Assembly: GCA_965243255.1 (NCBI GenBank)
Contig: CBDEUH010000004.1
Coordinates: 1,598,979-1,662,978 of the forward strand
Source of the DNA: Dehalococcoidia bacterium
GTDB taxonomy: Bacteria; Chloroflexota; Dehalococcoidia; Lucifugimonadales; UBA3495
Reading direction: 5' to 3'
DNA: 64,000 bases
Shown here: positions 3,736 to 49,656 of the stretch, piece by piece
Layout: each line of letters starts with the position of its first letter
How positions within the stretch are numbered: the stretch's first letter is position 1
Position numbers and translations under genes: made by a program
The notes under the pieces: generated by a model
The model's input: only the letters and a program-made list of their open reading frames with translations
Databases searched by the model: none
What the model was told of the DNA's origin: nothing

Positions 3736-3852
3736 AACGGGCCTCCCGATGTTCTGATGCGGGCCATTCTAGGGTGGCTCCCGCCACTGTCAACCCCGGC
3801 TGCTCCCGGCAGCGGCAGGATGGCCTGGTTGCTATCTAGGTAGTGATGTCTA

Positions 3853-7571: not shown

Positions 7572-8399
7572 TTAGGGCCAGGTCGGCGTGCTAGTCCTCT
7601 GCAGCATCTCCCGGACTTCCAGGCCCGACGGTGTATCCGGCGGTTGCAGCCGTGCTGCCTGGGCCCTGCTGTCCAGCTTCGCCTCTACCCTGGCCACTCT
7701 TTCCTGCGCCAACCGGCAGTATTCCTCCGACAGGTCGATGCCAACGTACTGCCGGCCTTCCAGGAGGGCGGCCACCGCCGTGGTGCCGCTGCCGATGAAC
7801 GGGTCCAGCACGATGTCCGCCGTCGTTGCCGCAATCGCCCGCTGCGCCAGCTCCACCGGAAACGGCGCCGGATGCGGGTTGCCTCTATCCTGCCGCACGC
7901 GCCAAACGTCGCCGATGCCGCCGGCCTTGGACGCCAGCCGGAACTCCGGCTTGGCAATCAGGTAAATCACCTCGTAGGTGGGCAGGAAGTAGCCGGGGTT
8001 GTGATTGAAACCGCCCGAACGCTGCCAGATGATGATTTGCCGCACCGGGAAGCCCTCGACAATGTCGGCCCGGTCTTGCAGCAACCCCTTCTGAACCCGC
8101 CACTTGTGATTGTAGAAAATCGCGCCGTCGGGCGTCAGCACCCGCAGCATCTCCCGCAGGCACTCCCGCTGCCACTCCACGTAGTCGTCGTGGGGCATTG
8201 CGTCGGAGTGGCCGGCGTAGCCCTGCATCAGGGCGGCCCGGGACCACTTGCCGCCGTTGCCGTTCTTCATGCCGTTGCCGCTGCTGTTCAGCAGGTTATA
8301 GGGCGGCGACGTTACCACCAGGTTCACCGACGCGTCCGGCATCCGGGCCAGCTGCGTCAGGCAATCCCCCTGTAGAATCTGATTGAGCCAGTTGTGCAT
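7572..8399 (-). CDS. Site-specific DNA methyltransferase, beta-class N4/N6 (motif IV SPPY precedes motif I)
   Basis: VVTSPPYN (motif IV) and VLDPFIGSGTTAVAA (motif I). No adjacent endonuclease-like ORF. Confidence 0.85.
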   Translation of the reverse strand: MHNWLNQILQGDCLTQLARMPDASVNLVVTSPPYNLLNSSGNGMKNGNGGKWSRAALMQGYAGHSDAMPHDDYVEWQRECLREMLRVLTPDGAIFYNHKWRVQKGLLQDRADIVEGFPVRQIIIWQRSGGFNHNPGYFLPTYEVIYLIAKPEFRLASKAGGIGDVWRVRQDRGNPHPAPFPVELAQRAIAATTADIVLDPFIGSGTTAVAALLEGRQYVGIDLSEEYCRLAQERVARVEAKLDSRAQAARLQPPDTPSGLEVREMLQRTSTPTWP

Positions 8400-9940: not shown

Positions 9941-9998
9941 GTAGGGGCGGATACCCGTCATTCCCGCGCAGGCGGGAATCCACGTCCCCCGCCCCTAC
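9941..9998. repeat. Nested palindromic REP-like element: outer GTAGGGGCGG/CCGCCCCTAC, inner ATTCCCGC-N4-GCGGGAAT
   Basis: Intergenic. The inner palindrome recurs at 44503-44522 and 49637-49656. The outer GTAGGGGCG/CGCCCCTAC arms recur at 15833-15860 and 34817-34841. Confidence 0.7.
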
Positions 9999-10566: not shown

Positions 10567-11223
10567 ATGGCCGGCGCCGCGCGGCTCCACATCGTCGATT
10601 TCGGCAGCGGCGCCCTGGCAATGCAGTTCGGATTGACCCTGGCCGTGCTGGACGCGTCGGAACGCGGTTTCCGGGTTCCTGAAGTCGGCGTTTCCCTTTT
10701 TGAACCCAACGACGCGATGCTGCGCATGGGCCTGAATGTATGGCAACGGTTCCTGCGCATCATGCACTATGATGGCGATGCTGACATCCCCACGTTGACC
10801 TCTTCCGTCCAAATCGGGGCCACCATGATACGCTCCGCGCGAATCACCAAGACCTCCGACATCAGCCTCCCCACGGACTCCCACCGTTGGTTGGTTGCCA
10901 TGCACGCCTACTACGCCGACGACCGGGAAAACATCAAACGCGACCTGGAGGCAATTCACCGGGCAGCCAAGCCTGATCTCGGTTTTCTGACTTACCACTA
11001 CGCCAGCCTCGACGGTATTCGCTACGTGTCGCCTTTTGCCAAACCGGGCAGTCCGGGCCCAATACCGCCGCTCCCGTTGTCCGGCGAACTAACCGAGGTC
11101 AACTCCTGGCGCAGTTCTCTGTCCCGGGCTCTGGGGTACCACGACGAAACCCGGTTAACCCGGCCAACTGAATGGGACCCGGTTCGGGGGCGGAGAGATA
11201 ACCGAGCCATCCTCTACGCCTAG
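10567..11223 (+). CDS. Hypothetical protein, possibly an N-terminally truncated Rossmann/methyltransferase-like remnant
   Basis: A VDFGSG glycine-rich loop lies only 10 aa from the start. There is an in-frame stop 40 nt upstream and no clear RBS. Confidence 0.45.
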   Translation: MAGAARLHIVDFGSGALAMQFGLTLAVLDASERGFRVPEVGVSLFEPNDAMLRMGLNVWQRFLRIMHYDGDADIPTLTSSVQIGATMIRSARITKTSDISLPTDSHRWLVAMHAYYADDRENIKRDLEAIHRAAKPDLGFLTYHYASLDGIRYVSPFAKPGSPGPIPPLPLSGELTEVNSWRSSLSRALGYHDETRLTRPTEWDPVRGRRDNRAILYA

Positions 11224-11276
11224 TCCCCTCCATCCTCGCCATCCGCGTAAAGATAAAATCCCTGACCCTGAAGCGC

Positions 11277-11306
11277 TTGACAATTGCCCGAACATCAGTT
11301 CATAAT
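11277..11306 (+). promoter_or_regulatory. Near-consensus promoter TTGACA-18-CATAAT driving the structured RNA element (copy 1)
   Basis: The same hexamers and the same 18-nt spacing are conserved in copy 2 (46213-46242, minus strand). Confidence 0.55.
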
Positions 11307-11312
11307 GGCCTT

Positions 11313-11834
11313 GTGCACATCCAAACCTGCCCCGTGCTCGATACGGGGTCCATCCATCCACAGCCTGCCAACGAGGTCAACATCACAACGGTCGTCAACG
11401 GCCAAAAACAGTCAGCTAATCCTAAATCGCACGAACGGTGCGGCCACAGCTGCCATTGACGGAGAACCGACTACCGTCATAGACACTGGAAGTGGCAACG
11501 GTGCGGCCACAGCTGCCATTGGCGGAGAACCGACTACCGTCATAGACACTGGAAGTGGCACGGTGCGACCACAGCTGCCATTGACGGATAACAGATTGCC
11601 GTCACAAACACTGGAAGTGGAAGTGCGTAAGAACCCCCCGGCCGTGGGACTGGCGGCGACCAAAGTGAATTCCGGAAACCGACCTCAGGCAGGCTACAAC
11701 CCAACCACCAACCACCGGAGGCCAACCCCAAATCCCGAAAATCCTGATTCTGACAACCCACCGGAGGCCATCCCCAACGAAAACCGCTAATCCCGTCAAC
11801 CCCCATAACTGCTTGCCCCGTACTCCATACGGGG
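11313..11834 (+). ncRNA. Candidate novel structured RNA, copy 1 (approximate ends): 5' hairpin, long-range helix enclosing three tandem hairpin modules, C/A-rich tail, 3' hairpin
   Basis: Long-range helix 11390-11403 / 11640-11661. Modules start at 11436, 11499 and 11561. GGAAGUG occurs four times and CACCGGAGGCCA twice. Hairpins CCCCGT-N7-ACGGGG lie at 11330-11348 and 11816-11834. The overlapping 168-aa ORF reads identical repeat units in two different frames. Confidence 0.55.
11436..11620 (+). repeat. Tandem repeat of three units (63, 62 and 60 nt) inside the candidate RNA
   Basis: Unit: CGGTGCGGCCACAGCTGCCATTGACGG-N11-CCGTCATAGACACTGGAAGTGGCAA. Units 1 and 2 are nearly identical. Unit 3 has a different loop and a 1-nt deletion. 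Confidence 0.9.
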
Positions 11835-11881
11835 AGCGGAAATCCTGATTCCGACGACTGCTGCGCGCCAGGCTATTCTTC

Positions 11882-11910
11882 TTGACACGGCAACTCCCGG
11901 CGGGTACTAT
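11882..11910 (+). promoter_or_regulatory. Candidate second promoter TTGACA-17-TACTAT in front of the DUF1800 operon leader
   Basis: Hexamers and spacing read from the sequence. An analogous TTGACC-17-TTTACT lies at the equivalent position of copy 2. Confidence 0.45.
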
Positions 11911-12033
11911 TCGGGCATCAGCCCGGAACCGTCGTGCGGCTGTGCTGTCATGTGGCCGTTCGCTACGGTTTCCGCCGTCAACCGACCCGTTTCGTAACCG
12001 AAACCGTCATCGACACCGCAGGAGGTACTTCTT

Positions 12034-15959: not shown

Positions 15960-16388
15960 TTGACTACTCAGGAACATCTGGTATCCCGGCTCAAGCCGCT
16001 GGGAATCCGCCTGACTCCTCAGCGCCTCGCCATTGCCGAGGTGGTGGTCAATTCCGCCGACCATCCCACGGTCCGCGAAATCTTTGAGAGGGTGAGGGAT
16101 TTCTTCCCCTACGTAACCTTGGCAACGGTTTACTCCACGTTGGGCCTGCTGGAGCAGGCTGGCATCGTTCGCGAGCTTCCTTTCCAGAAACTCTCTCGCT
16201 ACGACGCCAACCTGTCCCCTCACGCCAACCTCGTTTGCCTCGGCTGCGGCTCCATAGTGGACGCCGACGTGGGACAGGAACGGGTGGCCGAGCTGGAGCG
16301 CTCCATCAGCCAGACCAGCGAGTTCCGTATCTCATCCCAGCGGGTAGATTTCTACGGCTACTGCGACGGTTGCGCCAGAAACGCATGA
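15960..16388 (+). CDS. Fur family transcriptional regulator (Fur/Zur/PerR type)
   Basis: TPQRLAIAEVV winged-helix region, plus CLGCGSIVD and CDGC zinc-site cysteines. TTG start with a weak RBS. Confidence 0.8.
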   Translation: MTTQEHLVSRLKPLGIRLTPQRLAIAEVVVNSADHPTVREIFERVRDFFPYVTLATVYSTLGLLEQAGIVRELPFQKLSRYDANLSPHANLVCLGCGSIVDADVGQERVAELERSISQTSEFRISSQRVDFYGYCDGCARNA

Positions 16389-16471: not shown

Positions 16472-17659
16472 TTGCCGTTGGCTTACCTGTCCCGATTGAG
16501 CCTTACCAACTACCGCAATTTCCGGCAGGTTGACCTCGAACTGCCAGCGGGAGTATCGGTGTTCTACGGCGCCAACGCCCAGGGCAAAACCGCCCTGCTG
16601 GAGGCCGCCTACACCCTGGCGGTGGGACGTTCTTTCCGGGCAGAACGTGAGCGACAGGTAGTTAGCCTCGACGCTGCCCCCAGCGGCCAGGCCGCGTACA
16701 TCACCGGCGCCGCCGAGCGGGACCAGCAAGCGTTCACGGTGGTGGTCGGCTACCAGCCTGTCGCCGCTGAGACGGCCCGCCCGCCCGATGACGATGGAAG
16801 CAACACGGCGCCGTCAGTATCCAAACAGATCCGAGTCAACCGGCGGCCCAGCACCGCCGCCGGTCTCCTGGGGCGTGTTGGCGCAGTCCTTTTCGTCGTC
16901 GATGACCTAAATCTGGTTCTCGGCTCTCCGTCCCACCGACGCCGTTACCTGGATGTGCTTATCTCACAATGCCATCGGCCGTATCTAGACGCGCTGCAAC
17001 GTTACCAGGCTGCGCTGCGAAACCGGAACGGCCTGCTCCGTCGCCAGCGCACCGCTCCCGTCGCTCCCGATGAAATGGAGTATTGGGACACGCAACTGGT
17101 ACAGGCCGGCGCGGCAGTGGCAGCCGACCGCGCCGCCGCTATTGAGCGTTTGGCGGATTTTGCGGGCAGTCATTACGTGGAACTCGCCGAGCCGGACCAG
17201 GCGCTAACCATCGCCTATCGACCCAACGTGCCGCCGCAGGACTCAGCTGCTGCCACCGAAGCTCTCTTTCGGCAAATGTTGCAGCGGAATGCAACGCGAG
17301 AGCGCGCCACCGCGGTTACCGCCGCCGGTCCTCATCGGGATGATTTCGCCATCTTCGCCGACGGTCTGGACGCCCACGCTTTTGCCTCCCGGGGCGAAGC
17401 CCGCACCATCGCGCTATCCCTGCGCCTGGCCGAAGCCGACTACCTGGCCGAGGCACGGGACGACGACCCCATCATTATGCTGGACGATGTCTTCTCCGAA
17501 ATGGACGCACAGCGACGCCAGAGGGTACTGCGCAAAGCCGCCGCTTACCGACAAACTCTCATCACCACCACCGACCCGGAAGCAGTGCGGTCCGTCCTGG
17601 GCAACGGGGCGACCTACTTTCACGTTTCAAACGGAGTCGTATCGCCGCCGGAGTCTTGA
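16472..17659 (+). CDS. recF: DNA replication and repair protein RecF
   Basis: LSLTNYRNF...FYGANAQGKTALLEA Walker A. C-terminal signature SRGEARTIALSLRLAE and Walker B ...IIMLDDVFSEMD. Confidence 0.85.
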   Translation: MPLAYLSRLSLTNYRNFRQVDLELPAGVSVFYGANAQGKTALLEAAYTLAVGRSFRAERERQVVSLDAAPSGQAAYITGAAERDQQAFTVVVGYQPVAAETARPPDDDGSNTAPSVSKQIRVNRRPSTAAGLLGRVGAVLFVVDDLNLVLGSPSHRRRYLDVLISQCHRPYLDALQRYQAALRNRNGLLRRQRTAPVAPDEMEYWDTQLVQAGAAVAADRAAAIERLADFAGSHYVELAEPDQALTIAYRPNVPPQDSAAATEALFRQMLQRNATRERATAVTAAGPHRDDFAIFADGLDAHAFASRGEARTIALSLRLAEADYLAEARDDDPIIMLDDVFSEMDAQRRQRVLRKAAAYRQTLITTTDPEAVRSVLGNGATYFHVSNGVVSPPES

Positions 17660-26181: not shown

Positions 26182-28722
26182 CTAGCCTCTCTCCAGAGGC
26201 GCCAGGGAGACCAGGAGGCGCTTCAGTCCTACTTCGCCGCCAAAGTTCACCGTGGCCTGCTCGGTGTCCCCGGTTCCCTGCACTTCCTGCACTACGCCCT
26301 CTCCAAATACGGAATGGCGCACGATTTCACCCACTGTCAGCGGGACGCGCTGCGGGTTTTTCGGGCCCGCTGAGCGGCTGGAATCCCATTCGGTGAGTCG
26401 CTCGTCGATGTTGCCGCGCAGCCGACCACGGGTTGCGTCCCCGCCAGTCCCGGCGCCGTCGCCCAGGCGGGTGCGCGATTCCCGGCGGCGGGTGGCGTAT
26501 TCGCCGCCGATGACTGCGTGCTCGTTGCGGTTGGAACGTCCCGGCGTCAAGCCATGCTCGCCTGACTGAGAACCCGGGCGTCGTTCCGACGCCGGTGAAG
26601 TCAGCACGTTCTCGGGCACGTCCTCCAGGAATCGCGAGGGCAGGGAAACCCCGCCGGAGGATGGATAACGTCGCCGGAAGGCCCGCAGGAGGTACAGCCG
26701 CTCTTTGGCCCGCGTCATTCCCACGTAGCACAGGCGGCGTTCTTCTTCGGTTTCCCGCGCCGTATCCATGGAGCGGCTGTGGGGCAGCAGCCCTTCTTCC
26801 ATACCGGCCATCATCACGACGGGAAACTCCAGCCCCTTGGCCTGGTGCAGCGTAATCAACGTCAGCGCATCGTCGGATTGCTCGTAACTGTCAACGTCGG
26901 ACACCAGCGATACGCGTTCCAGGAAAGCGCCCAGGCCATCGACGGAGCCGTCGCCGGACGGCCCATAGTCTTCCGCCAGGCCGCGCAACTCCAGGATGTT
27001 CTCCCAGCGCTCTTCGCTGTCGTCCTGCGCGTGGATGTGCCGGGCCAGCCCGCTCATGTCCAGCGCCCGGTCCAGCAGGTCGGCAACCCCGAGTTCCCGC
27101 GCCGCCTCGCCCAGCCGTTCCAGCGTAATCGACAGGTCTGCGATGGAGCGCGCCGCTCGCGTAGTAACCTGGACGGGATAGGGTCGGTTTTCCGTTCGGG
27201 CTGCCGCCATCTCCCGCATCGCGGCCCGCGCAGTAATGCCCGACCTGGCGGCGAACCCGGTCAACTGCTGCACCGTCTTGGCGCCGATGCCACGGGGCGG
27301 TGTGTTGATTATGCGCTGCAGGCTCACCTCATCGTCGGGATTGTAAATCACCCGCAGGTAGCACATGGCATCCTTGATTTCCTTGCGGTGATAAAACCTT
27401 ACCCCGCCCACCAGGCGGTAGGGGATGCCTTGCCGCATACACTGGTCTTCAAAGGCCCGGCTCTGGGCGTTGATGCGGTACATAATGGCGCAGTCGCCAG
27501 ACCGGTATTCCTGCGACCGGGCCAGCCGGGTAACTTCGTCCACTGCCCAGGCCGCTTCGTCCTCTTCACTGAATGCCTCGTGCAGGGTAATGGGTTGTCC
27601 CACCTGGTTGTTGGTGAACAGGGGACGCTCGATGCGCTCCGTGTTGACGGAAATGACGGCGGCGGCCGCGTTGAGGATGTTCTGCGTTGAGCGGTAGTTT
27701 TCGCCCAGGCCGATAACCGTGGCGTTGGGAAAGTCGCTCTGGAAACTGAGAATGTTGCGGATGTCGGCATTGCGCCAGGAGTAGATGCTCTGGTCGGGGT
27801 CGCCAACAACGCAGAGGTTCTGATGGGCGCCGGTGAGCAACCTGGCCAACCGGTACTGGGCCACGTTGGTGTCCTGGAACTCGTCAATCAGGAGGTGCCG
27901 GTAGCGGTCATGGTACTGGGCCTGCACTTCCGGAATGTTTTCAAGCAGTTGCGTTGTCCGCATCAGCAGGTCGTCGAAATCCAGGGCGTTCTGCCGCGTC
28001 AGCGCCTCTTCGTAGTAGTGGTACACCCGCGCGCACACGTCAACCCAGTGAGCGCCATACTCGTCGTCCGCGTCGTAAGCCGTCGCCGCCAATTGCCGAG
28101 AGTCCAGCAGGCTGCTTTTCGCCGCCGAGATGCGGGACAGCAAGGCCCGCGGGTTGTAGCTTCGGGAGTCTATGTCGGCCAGCTGCATGGCCGACTTGAC
28201 GGCGTCAACCTGGTCGTCCTGGTCGTAAATCGTAAAGTTACGGTCAAGGCCAACCCGTTCGCCGTGCCGTCGCAGAATGCGCGCGCAAACCGCGTGGAAG
28301 GTTCCCATGGTTACGGCCTGGCTGGGACCCATCATCAGGCGGTCGAGCCGTTCCCGCATCTCCCGGGCCGCCTTGTTGGTAAAAGTTACGGCCAGGATGC
28401 GCCACGGCGCGACGTCGCACACGGTCACCAGATAGGCGATGCGGTGGGTAATCACGCGGGTTTTGCCCGAGCCTGGGCCGGCAACAATCAGCAGCGGCCC
28501 CTGGGTGCAGAGCACGGCCTGCTGCTGTGGCTCGTTCAGCCCCTGCAGAATGGCCGGCGAACGTTCAGGGGACGCAGTACCAGAGATTGCAGCAATCTCA
28601 ATTTCCGTCAACTCGGCATTGTTCCAGTAGGGCGAGGACGCCGGTTCTGCCCAGTAGGGAGCCGATGCCGGGGGACCGGAATTGCCGGGCGGATGTTCGG
28701 AAAGCTGGGGCTGCAAGGACAT
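26182..28722 (-). CDS. pcrA: ATP-dependent DNA helicase PcrA/UvrD
   Basis: AGPGSGKTRV (Walker A), TFTNKAAREMRERL, LLIDEFQDTN, and a C-terminal Tudor-like segment HSVFGEGVV. Confidence 0.9.
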   Translation of the reverse strand: MSLQPQLSEHPPGNSGPPASAPYWAEPASSPYWNNAELTEIEIAAISGTASPERSPAILQGLNEPQQQAVLCTQGPLLIVAGPGSGKTRVITHRIAYLVTVCDVAPWRILAVTFTNKAAREMRERLDRLMMGPSQAVTMGTFHAVCARILRRHGERVGLDRNFTIYDQDDQVDAVKSAMQLADIDSRSYNPRALLSRISAAKSSLLDSRQLAATAYDADDEYGAHWVDVCARVYHYYEEALTRQNALDFDDLLMRTTQLLENIPEVQAQYHDRYRHLLIDEFQDTNVAQYRLARLLTGAHQNLCVVGDPDQSIYSWRNADIRNILSFQSDFPNATVIGLGENYRSTQNILNAAAAVISVNTERIERPLFTNNQVGQPITLHEAFSEEDEAAWAVDEVTRLARSQEYRSGDCAIMYRINAQSRAFEDQCMRQGIPYRLVGGVRFYHRKEIKDAMCYLRVIYNPDDEVSLQRIINTPPRGIGAKTVQQLTGFAARSGITARAAMREMAAARTENRPYPVQVTTRAARSIADLSITLERLGEAARELGVADLLDRALDMSGLARHIHAQDDSEERWENILELRGLAEDYGPSGDGSVDGLGAFLERVSLVSDVDSYEQSDDALTLITLHQAKGLEFPVVMMAGMEEGLLPHSRSMDTARETEEERRLCYVGMTRAKERLYLLRAFRRRYPSSGGVSLPSRFLEDVPENVLTSPASERRPGSQSGEHGLTPGRSNRNEHAVIGGEYATRRRESRTRLGDGAGTGGDATRGRLRGNIDERLTEWDSSRSAGPKNPQRVPLTVGEIVRHSVFGEGVVQEVQGTGDTEQATVNFGGEVGLKRLLVSLAPLERG

Positions 28723-44502: not shown

Positions 44503-44522
44503 ATTCCCGCCTACGCGGGAAT
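44503..44522. repeat. REP-like palindrome ATTCCCGC-N4-GCGGGAAT
   Basis: Same palindrome as at 9960-9979 and 49637-49656. Intergenic. Confidence 0.7.
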
Positions 44523-45721: not shown

Positions 45722-46212
45722 TCAAGTTGGGGTTGTGGGGACGCCGGTGAGGGGCGTAGCGATGTGGCCGTTCGGGTTTGAGGTTCGTGGTATCGGCTTC
45801 ATTTTGGTTGGCTCCTTCGGATTGGGATTCGGTTTTCGGTAGGTTGGGCAGCCTGCGAGAGGTAAGGTGGTCGTTGTCAGCCCCACGGCCGGGGGTTGGT
45901 TACGCACTTCCACATAGGTGTTTTCGTACGAGCATGTAGTTAGCCGCACTGGCCGCAGTGGTATCGCGCCGTTGCCACTTCCGGTGTCTATGACGGTCAT
46001 CTGTTATCCGCCAATGGCAGCTGTGGCCGCACCGTTGTCACTTCCAGTGTTTGTGACGGCGATCTGTTATCCGTCAATGGCAGCAGTGACCGCACCGGCG
46101 TGCGTTGTTAGGATTTGCTGACGGTTGTGGCCGTTGACGACCGGAACCGTGATGGTTCTTGATTTACCTCGTTGCAGGCTGTGGGTTACCGATGATTCAC
46201 GCGTGTAGGGAT
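45722..46212 (-). ncRNA. Candidate novel structured RNA, copy 2 (diverged homolog of 11313-11834; approximate ends)
   Basis: Same block order as copy 1. Long-range helix 46129-46142 / 45869-45890. Two good modules plus one degenerate module (45903-46097). GGAAGUG occurs three times. C/A-rich tail with GGAGCCAACC. In-frame stop codons fall where copy 1 has an ORF. Confidence 0.5.
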
Positions 46213-49636: not shown

Positions 49637-49656
49637 ATTCCCGCCTTCGCGGGAAT
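49637..49656. repeat. REP-like palindrome ATTCCCGC-N4-GCGGGAAT followed by GACGG
   Basis: Third copy of the palindrome. Intergenic. Confidence 0.7.

Follow-up and report, generated by a model that had tools for sequence, protein, structure and literature searches.

The 64,000-nucleotide (nt) stretch of contig CBDEUH010000004.1 from a Dehalococcoidia bacterium that was analysed here (the window, to which all positions refer) contains, at 11277-11860 on the forward strand, a promoter followed by several hundred nt in which no credible gene is apparent. This raises the question of what is transcribed from this promoter. Our data indicate that the region is very probably the gene for a folded, non-protein-coding RNA that belongs to a previously undescribed family. 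The folded core comprises about 335 nt, and the predicted transcript has about 380-520 nt including a 5' leader and a tail. A second, paralogous gene is present in the window on the reverse strand (46242-45850). We refer to the two genes as copy 1 and copy 2.

Two paralogous genes for a noncoding RNA

The original prediction had described a near-consensus promoter of the form TTGACA-18-CATAAT, and this promoter is present (Table 1). It agrees with the consensus at 11 of 12 positions, and the same -35 and -10 elements were found in all six homologous promoters. By this measure the RNA clearly has a strong sigma-70-type promoter of its own. The motif CACTGGAAGTG, which recurs in copy 1, is also found near position 46000 on the minus strand, and the region around it turned out to be the paralogue, the second of the two copies of which the prediction had spoken. 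Its promoter is identical to that of copy 1 at 28 of 30 positions, and GGTCGTCAACGGCC, GTCAGC and the GTGGAAGTGCGTAA..CCCCCGGCCGTGGG blocks are shared as well, while the tails of the two copies are unrelated in sequence. Neither BLAST nor a covariance model of the repeated modules revealed a third copy in the window.

A protein-coding gene was considered and rejected, since each of the six reading frames is interrupted by stop codons in at least one copy. The frame that reads 'NGAATAAIDGEPTTVIDTGSG' in modules 1 and 2 meets a TAA in module 3 and in both copy 2 modules, i.e., in three of five modules. The G+C content at third codon positions (GC3) is 0.57 for a 168-aa open reading frame (ORF) over the region and 0.63 for a 92-aa ORF, compared to 0.7-0.9 for the genes of the window. 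As had been noticed before, the 168-aa ORF reads the third unit in a different frame, owing to a 1-nt deletion, and its frame is not kept among the copies. A search of the concatenated six-frame translation of both copies against 5.8 billion predicted proteins gave zero matches, which also argues against coding. The Rfam 15 covariance models identified only two tRNAs in the window and matched neither RNA copy; the signals over both copies were noise, with E values of 0.7 to 9.3 and scores far under the gathering scores. Thus the view that a promoter drives a noncoding RNA outside any named family, rather than a gene for a protein, has stood up.

Homologues in related Chloroflexi

In the genome collection the module pattern was found only in Chloroflexi bacterium SB0666_bin_1, at two loci (L001 and L002; retrieved loci are given with such numbers). 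Scans of JGI metagenomes with the module pattern and with the scaffold pattern gave nothing, scans of IMG/VR gave only chance single matches, as confirmed by BLAST, and BLAST against phages and plasmids gave nothing. A synteny walk along the loci orthologous to the flanking genes DUF1800 and argD led to three further copies: L054 (with L055 and L056), the orthologue of copy 2; L057, at the DUF1800 locus of a 3.29-Mb contig; and L059, with only the 3' part of the RNA. In this walk the element was present at L002/L043, L054-L056, L057 and L059, and absent from the DUF1800 orthologue loci L003-L017, L040, L041 and L058 as well as from the argD orthologue loci L042 and L044-L053. L057 and L058 represent the same locus in the same clade, filled in the former and empty in the latter. 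Homologues were found only in a few closely related Chloroflexi assemblies, of which the nearest relatives carry at least three copies and the window two. The proteins encoded nearby assign the window to a SAR202-like Dehalococcoidia/Chloroflexi lineage, and sample labels suggest that this lineage is probably sponge-associated.

Several short-read contigs end inside the RNA (L001 at position 3784; L055, L056 and L059 at position 1). Copies exactly at contig ends are expected for a multi-copy repeat. The element breaks assemblies, so that its copy number in metagenome-assembled genomes is probably underestimated.

Nested long-range helices enclose a variable interior

The RNA is built as a scaffold of nested long-range helices (P1a/P1b, P2a/P2b and P4) that encloses a variable array of modules. 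A further helix, P3, possibly forms a pseudoknot that crosses P2b. A long-range helix between 11390-11403 and 11640-11661 had been predicted from copy 1; this helix, now P2, is perfectly conserved in seven homologues and lies inside the outer helix P1, which shows a compensatory change. P1a (AGCCUGC(C)/(G)GCAGGCU), P1b (GAGGUC/GACCUC) and P2a (GGUCG/CGACC) appeared independently in the minimum free energy folds of five homologues, and P2a also in the RNAalifold consensus. The strands of P2 (GGTCGTCAACGGCC and GGCCGT...CGACC), including P2b (ACGGCC/GGCCGU), are invariant over all homologues.

Changes on both sides that preserve pairing were found in P1b, in P4, in the closing helix of the modules and between the two types of module hairpin described below. 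P1b reads GAGGUAA/UUACCUC in copy 2 and L054, and P4 changes from CGCAC/GUGCG to CGCAAG/CUUGCG in the module-poor L054 and L057. In P3 (GUCAGC/GCUGRC) a U-A pair changes to U.G, and copy 1 has one terminal mismatch. Between paralogue types the identity is 97% or more at the 63 helix-core positions and 45-56% in the linkers, a contrast that is partly circular, since the cores were defined as shared motifs. The pairs of P1 were tabulated by hand; an automatic alignment of the scaffold alone misplaced the P1 3' strands. G.U pairs occur in module 2, in P3 and in the B-type hairpins, on the promoter strand only, which identifies this strand as the transcribed one.

Modules of two types are combined differently among copies

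The tandem array of copy 1 consists of three 63-nt units (11434-11620) with 92% matches and a spacing of 63 and then 62 nt. As originally described, each unit contains the hairpin TGACGG-N11-CCGTCA followed by CACTGGAAGTG (at 11484, 11547 and 11609), and GGAAGTG (GGAAGUG in the RNA) occurs four times. The second unit has TGGCGG instead, which retains a G.U pair, and wherever another copy has two or more units, its second unit shows the same A-to-G change. The junction ahead of module 3, which is shorter by 1 nt, is also found in L001.

The modules can be assigned to two types, both 53-54 nt long and built alike from a closing helix (G)CCAC/GUGG(C), the two strands of an internal loop, a 6-bp hairpin and a loop of 10-13 nt. 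The hairpin is UGACGG/CCGUCA in A-type modules and GUACGG/CCGUAC, GUACGG/CCGUGC or GUGCGG/UCGUAC in B-type modules. GGAAGUG overlaps the 5-bp closing helix GCCAC/GUGGC of the A-type, in which we observed one compensatory change (to GUCAC/GUGAC, in one module) and one G.U pair; a predicted CAC/GUG mini-hairpin shows zero variation among modules. Copy 1 and L001 contain three A-type modules, L002 two, and copy 2 two together with one B-type module. In L054 and L057 a single B-type module is combined with other hairpins, and GGAAGUG is missing. The covariance model of the modules, R1, gave no significant match to B-type modules (9.3 bits for that of copy 2).

The asymmetric internal loop is invariant, and the hairpin loop is free. 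Apart from the loops, modules of different genomes agree at about 98-100% of positions, compared to 81-87% at the neutral four-fold sites of the same genomes. The loops are wholly different between genomes and common to the copies inside one genome, a pattern that does not discriminate between unconstrained loops with module turnover and a genome-specific specificity. Kissing of the module loops with the loops of the bracketing hairpins was also considered; it is feasible in L002 only and inconsistent across copies, and was rejected.

An operator-like palindrome in the promoter spacer

All six promoters contain the palindrome GAAC-N4-GTTC in the spacer, directly next to the -10 element. Its half-sites are constant apart from one half-site mismatch in L002, and the central four nucleotides (ATCA, ATTC, GCAC or GTAT) and the flanks vary. 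The palindrome reads CGAACATCAGTTCA in copy 1, L054 and L057, CGAACATTCGTTCA in copy 2, GGAACGCACGTTCT in L001 and GAAACGTATGTTCT in L002. The complete 64-kb window has only two perfect GAAC-N4-GTTC sites, one in each RNA promoter. Among the 56 loci retrieved up to that point, CGAAC-N4-GTTC was found only at the RNA promoter of L054, L055 and L056.

Bacillus, Mycobacterium and other Gram-positive bacteria use GAAC-N4-GTTC as their LexA box (PMC3323433, PMC3091678). At the RNA genes the box overlaps the core promoter, as expected for a member of a LexA regulon. The same motif was reportedly found for the LexA protein of Dehalococcoides by Fernandez de Henestrosa and co-workers in 2002. The motif and its position suggest that the RNA is probably controlled by a repressor that binds GAAC-N4-GTTC. 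This repressor could well be LexA, which would make the RNA part of the SOS response, although here we lean slightly towards doubt.

The window also encodes a RecF-like ATPase (16472-17659), a UvrD/PcrA helicase (26182-28722, minus strand), an N6/N4 DNA methylase (7572-8399, minus strand) and a Fur-family regulator (15960-16388). No good GAAC-N4-GTTC box was found upstream of these four genes.

A perfect palindrome also lies at the predicted transcription start. Copy 1, copy 2, L001, L002, L054 and L057 each have a different one, of 6-10 nt, at the same offset of 5-7 nt past the -10 element. The palindromes of orthologous pairs differ symmetrically (e.g., CACGCGTG versus CACTAGTG), and their length is insufficient for RNA hairpins.

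Tail, accessory hairpins and flanking repeats

The tails of all copies are rich in C (39-43%) and A (about 33%) and poor in G (13-16%), and are candidate regions for Rho loading and termination. A GGAGG-like motif is located 25-45 nt past P1 in all tails; a conserved start codon after this motif is absent. The exact CACCGGAGGCCA repeats that had been reported for the tail at 11713 and 11759 are there; they are particular to copy 1 and absent from copy 2, L002 and L054. A 26-codon ORF after AAGGAG in the tail of copy 2 (45805-45725, minus strand) is probably not a gene. It is missing in copy 1 and differs from L054 by two synonymous and seven non-synonymous codon changes (own count).

The near-identical CCCCGT hairpins said to bracket the element exist in copy 1, where TGCCCCGT-N7-ACGGGG is found at 11328-11348 and 11814-11834 (2 matches versus 0.12 expected), but they are not conserved across the family. 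Both are absent as such from copy 2, L002 and L054; the 3' hairpin is degenerate in L002 and present in L057, and in L001 the loop of the 5' hairpin is reverse-complemented. L057 and L059 have in their place a ATTCCGGC-GNRA-GCCGGAAT hairpin of a family resembling repetitive extragenic palindromes (REP-like). Intergenic REP-like hairpins of the form ATTCCCGC-N4-GCGGGAAT are also found elsewhere in the window, at 9960-9979, 44503-44522 and 49637-49656. The form ATTCCGGC-GNRA-GCCGGAAT is a compensatory variant in the relatives (L057 2409-2428 and L059 68-87), located once in the 5' leader and once in the tail of the RNA.

At the DUF1800 locus, directly repeated copies of a sequence of about 16 nt, AAATCCTGAWWCYGRC, flank the RNA cassette. 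They lie at 2318-2340 and 2808-2825 in L057, and two copies are adjacent in the empty site of L058 (616-650). This suggests that the cassette is gained or lost by recombination at these repeats.

Table 1. Positions of the elements of both RNA genes and of the downstream promoter in the window
Feature	Positions	Strand	Remarks
Copy 1 promoter	11277-11306	+	-35 TTGACA 11277-11282; 18-nt spacer; -10 CATAAT 11301-11306
Copy 1 operator-like palindrome CGAAC-ATCA-GTTCA	11289-11302		in promoter spacer, abuts -10; LexA/Cheo-box type GAAC-N4-GTTC
Perfect 8-nt palindrome TGTGCACA	11312-11319		predicted transcription start
5' accessory hairpin CCCCGT-N7-ACGGGG	11330-11348	+	not a conserved part
P1 5' strand	11362-11369 (P1a); 11373-11378 (P1b)	+	P1a AGCCTGCC; P1b GAGGTC
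P2 5' strand GGTCG-TCA-ACGGCC (GGTCGTCAACGGCC)	11390-11403	+	P2a 11390-11394; P2b 11398-11403
P3 5' strand GTCAGC	11411-11416	+	pairs with ACTGGC 11649-11654
P4 5' strand CGCAC	11428-11432	+	pairs with GTGCG 11623-11627; encloses modules
Module 1	11443-11496	+	closing helix GCCAC/GTGGC, asymmetric internal loop, TGACGG-N11-CCGTCA; covariance model R1 82.2 bits
Module 2	11506-11559	+	hairpin TGGCGG/CCGTCA with G.U; R1 82.0 bits
Module 3	11568-11621	+	preceding linker 1 nt shorter, loop differs; R1 79.9 bits
Scaffold 3' half	11623-11695	+	
P4 3' strand GTGCG	11623-11627	+	
P2b 3' strand GGCCGT	11640-11645	+	
P3 3' strand ACTGGC	11649-11654	+	
P2a 3' strand CGACC	11657-11661	+	
P1c 3' strand GTGA	11665-11668	+	
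P1b 3' strand GACCTC	11681-11686	+	
P1a 3' strand GGCAGGCT	11688-11695	+	
C/A-rich, G-poor tail	11696-11812	+	C 43%, G 13%; CACCGGAGGCCA at 11713 and 11759
3' accessory hairpin TGCCCCGT-N7-ACGGGG	11814-11834	+	possible 3' end
Repeat GGAAATCCTGATTCCGACGAC, right-hand copy	11838-11858		cassette edge; others at 11737-11757 and, diverged, ~11252-11275
DUF1800 promoter TTGACA-17-TACTAT	11882-11910		between RNA element and DUF1800
Copy 2 RNA gene	46242 to ~45850	-	core 46180-45850
Copy 2 promoter	46242-46213	-	
Copy 2 operator	46230-46217	-	
Copy 2 palindrome CACGCGTG	46205-46198	-	
Copy 2 modules	46090-46037; 46027-45974	-	
Copy 2 diverged B-type module	45962-45909	-	

Proposed function and alternatives

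The best reading of these data is an independently transcribed, probably damage-inducible RNA that acts in trans as a scaffold or decoy; we consider the case for it and the doubt about it to be in balance. In the proposed mechanism the GAAC-N4-GTTC palindrome would serve as operator for a LexA-type repressor, so that the RNA would be produced after DNA damage. Transcription would be stopped by Rho at the C-rich, G-poor tail. Through its repeated internal loops the RNA would capture several molecules of a single RNA-binding factor, and the leader of the DUF1800 mRNA, whose part close to the Shine-Dalgarno (SD) sequence resembles the 3' half of the modules, would be the natural competitor for this factor. 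The last steps are tentative: that the RNA acts in trans, as a multivalent platform for binding or as a decoy, is the strongest among a number of weak options, and more possible than probable.

The loop and 3' half of module 1, AACCGACUACCGUCAUAGACAC, and the SD-proximal leader sequence AACCGAAACCGUCAUCGACAC agree at 20 of 22 nt (shuffle P<0.0005), and a collinear likeness in two segments reaches P values of 0.002-0.02 in the nearest orthologues. We take this resemblance as a lead on what the modules might mimic, and not as a demonstration of homology.

Several points weigh against the proposed function. The transcript is predicted from the sequence and LexA binding from the motif, and neither lexA nor recA of this lineage was found among the window genes or the fetched loci. 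No obvious RNA-binding partner adjoins any copy. An intrinsic terminator is not predicted either. The folding z-scores are modest (-2.1 and -1.3). There are seven known homologues, two of them partial, from two to three closely related species; with so few and close homologues the power to detect covariation is low, and most helices never vary. L054 and L057 have a single diverged module without GGAAGUG, and a multivalent decoy can therefore explain the RNA only in part. The likeness between module and leader is lost in distant orthologues, and the covariance model R1 gave no significant match to the DUF1800 leaders.

A more elaborate version, which we regard as a long shot, is a multi-copy "display scaffold" RNA under DNA damage control. 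Its conserved, pseudoknotted frame would be switched on by LexA cleavage, its exchangeable modules would mimic the DUF1800/DUF1501 leader and titrate the regulator of that leader, and its cassettes would be gained and lost between direct repeats.

Among the alternatives, action in cis survives best, but is unlikely. Here transcription from the promoter would continue past the structured RNA and its C-rich tail as far as the DUF1800/DUF1501 or LLM genes. The fold would govern mRNA stability or Rho-dependent termination, and the element would give these genes a second promoter and leader that are conditional and induced by damage. Every copy with a known downstream gene is co-directional with it, no intrinsic terminator separates the RNA from the gene, and the tail, which resembles a Rho utilization (rut) site, could serve as attenuator. 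The co-orientation is not significant, since only two independent loci are known. Moreover, these two loci host functionally unrelated genes, DUF1800/DUF1501 downstream of copy 1 and an LLM oxidoreductase at the copy 2 locus, and the downstream genes have conserved promoters of their own. A promoter is located between the element and DUF1800, and this promoter and a leader of about 125 nt are conserved in 11 of 11 orthologous loci, with the element present or not. As DUF1800 retains a promoter and leader of its own where the element is absent, the element is not the DUF1800 leader, and a long cis-acting leader, as the original prediction had offered for choice, becomes improbable.

The DUF1800/DUF1501 leader is itself structured (11882-12033 in the window, and also in L002, L008, L013, L040, L041 and L057-L059), with the invariant blocks ACGGTATCCGCC, CGAAACCGTCA and AGGAGGTA. 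It has no match in Rfam and is an independent candidate for a cis-regulatory RNA. On the other side of copy 1, a 218-aa ORF without Pfam match (10567-11223) is an N-terminally shortened copy of a gene for 316-318 aa. L003-L010 and L040 have this gene in intact form, the SB0666-type locus lacks it, and it may be decaying in the RNA-carrying lineage.

A little less favoured than action in cis is a small mobile or selfish cassette, the RNA of which would serve spread or maintenance of the cassette, for instance as a non-autonomous element mobilised in trans or as a guide or bridge-like RNA of an element elsewhere. The presence of at least three copies per genome, the polymorphism between filled L057 and empty L058 (and the empty L003-L017, L040 and L041), the 16-nt repeat copies that flank the cassette and are adjacent in the empty site, and the copies at contig ends in L001, L055, L056 and L059 would all fit such a cassette. 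However, no transposase, recombinase, reverse transcriptase or TnpB was found in the flanks of any of the seven loci, so the reverse transcriptase, recombinase or TnpB gene that adjoins a retron, an RNA guide encoded by an insertion sequence or an omega RNA is missing. Terminal inverted repeats are absent, the copy 2 locus lacks the 16-nt repeat, and the phage, plasmid and IMG/VR collections contain no match. A defence system or toxin does not adjoin any copy either; PADLOC applied to the flanking proteins gave only an 'oxidoreductase' family match, to the LLM gene.

The original prediction favoured a sponge of the CsrB/RsmZ type that titrates CsrA by GGA motifs, and this we now consider very improbable. 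Each A-type RNA does have three to five GGA motifs in ACACUGGAAGUG contexts, and GGAGG motifs are present in the tail. Like CsrB, RsmY and RsmZ, the RNA is independently transcribed and repeats a short unit with the same GGA-containing motif, and sequestration of several copies of one factor is plausible for it. In contrast to those RNAs, the motif lies in an internal loop next to the closing helix instead of in hairpin loops, the units are placed inside a long-range scaffold, and an intrinsic (Rho-independent) terminator is absent. GGAAGUG overlaps a closing helix with a compensatory change, and L054 and L057 lack the units that contain it. Rfam gave no match to CsrB or RsmX/Y/Z at the gathering score or at E<=10, and csrA is not among the genes of the window.

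Even less credible is a repeat at the DNA level, an array of protein-binding sites or iterons (TGACGG-N11-CCGTCA): the tandem 63-bp units, each an inverted repeat with a variable spacer, and the palindromes at promoter and transcription start would suit it, but the G.U pairs that recur in module 2, in P3 and in the B-type hairpins would be mismatches if the opposite strand were read and are meaningless in duplex DNA, compensatory changes connect positions 45 to more than 300 nt apart, and the conserved promoter is directed into the array. A protein-coding gene or pseudogene with 21-residue repeats can practically be dismissed: the 63-nt period is a multiple of three and ORFs of 168 aa (forward strand) and 83 aa (reverse strand) exist, but the 168-aa ORF begins within the promoter and the frame shift between units is kept in L001, in addition to the interrupted frames, the low GC3 and the lack of a protein homologue in any frame described above.

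Comparison with known RNAs

In E. coli, LexA-type operators overlap the promoters of noncoding transcripts or of transcripts with tiny ORFs (istR-2, tisB/istR, symE/symR), and these SOS RNAs are short antisense regulators linked to a toxin gene. The position of the operator over the promoter is the same in the RNA described here. Unlike the E. coli RNAs, it is large and structured, is not accompanied by a toxin ORF and has an operator of the Gram-positive type, GAAC-N4-GTTC.

Bacterial Y RNAs (YrlA/YrlB with Rsr/Ro60) are linked to the response to radiation and damage in Deinococcus. They share with our RNA the pairing of 5' and 3' ends into a stem that closes a variable modular interior, and the occurrence of several copies per genome. 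However, Rfam gave no match to Y RNA or YrlA, no TROVE/Rsr gene is present in the window and a tRNA-like module is absent. Type III antitoxin RNAs (ToxI) likewise have a structured unit that is directly repeated in tandem under a single promoter. In our case a downstream gene for a toxin endoribonuclease is absent, PADLOC gave no type III toxin, the repeats lie within a scaffold, and orthologues without the repeats exist.

OLE, GOLLD, ROOL, HEARO and raiA are large, "ornate" orphan noncoding RNAs that were found by comparative genomics. The combination of a conserved structured core with variable peripheral domains is common to them and the RNA of the window, which differs by its much smaller size, its very narrow distribution, its damage-type operator and the lack of a match in Rfam.

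Significance

The practical weight of these results is limited by the very narrow distribution of the RNA and by its uncultured host. Within the family, the fixed scaffold with one to three swappable modules represents a natural experiment on module binding, and the resemblance between module and leader provides a handle on how the DUF1800/DUF1501 gene pair, which is widespread, is regulated. If expression of the RNA and its control by LexA prove correct, it would join the very few RNAs of SOS regulons that are large and structured, and no regulatory RNA would have been described earlier for this SAR202-like lineage of uncultivated Chloroflexi. Should the display-scaffold version hold true, these Chloroflexi would possess RNA decoys of a new, SOS-regulated class.

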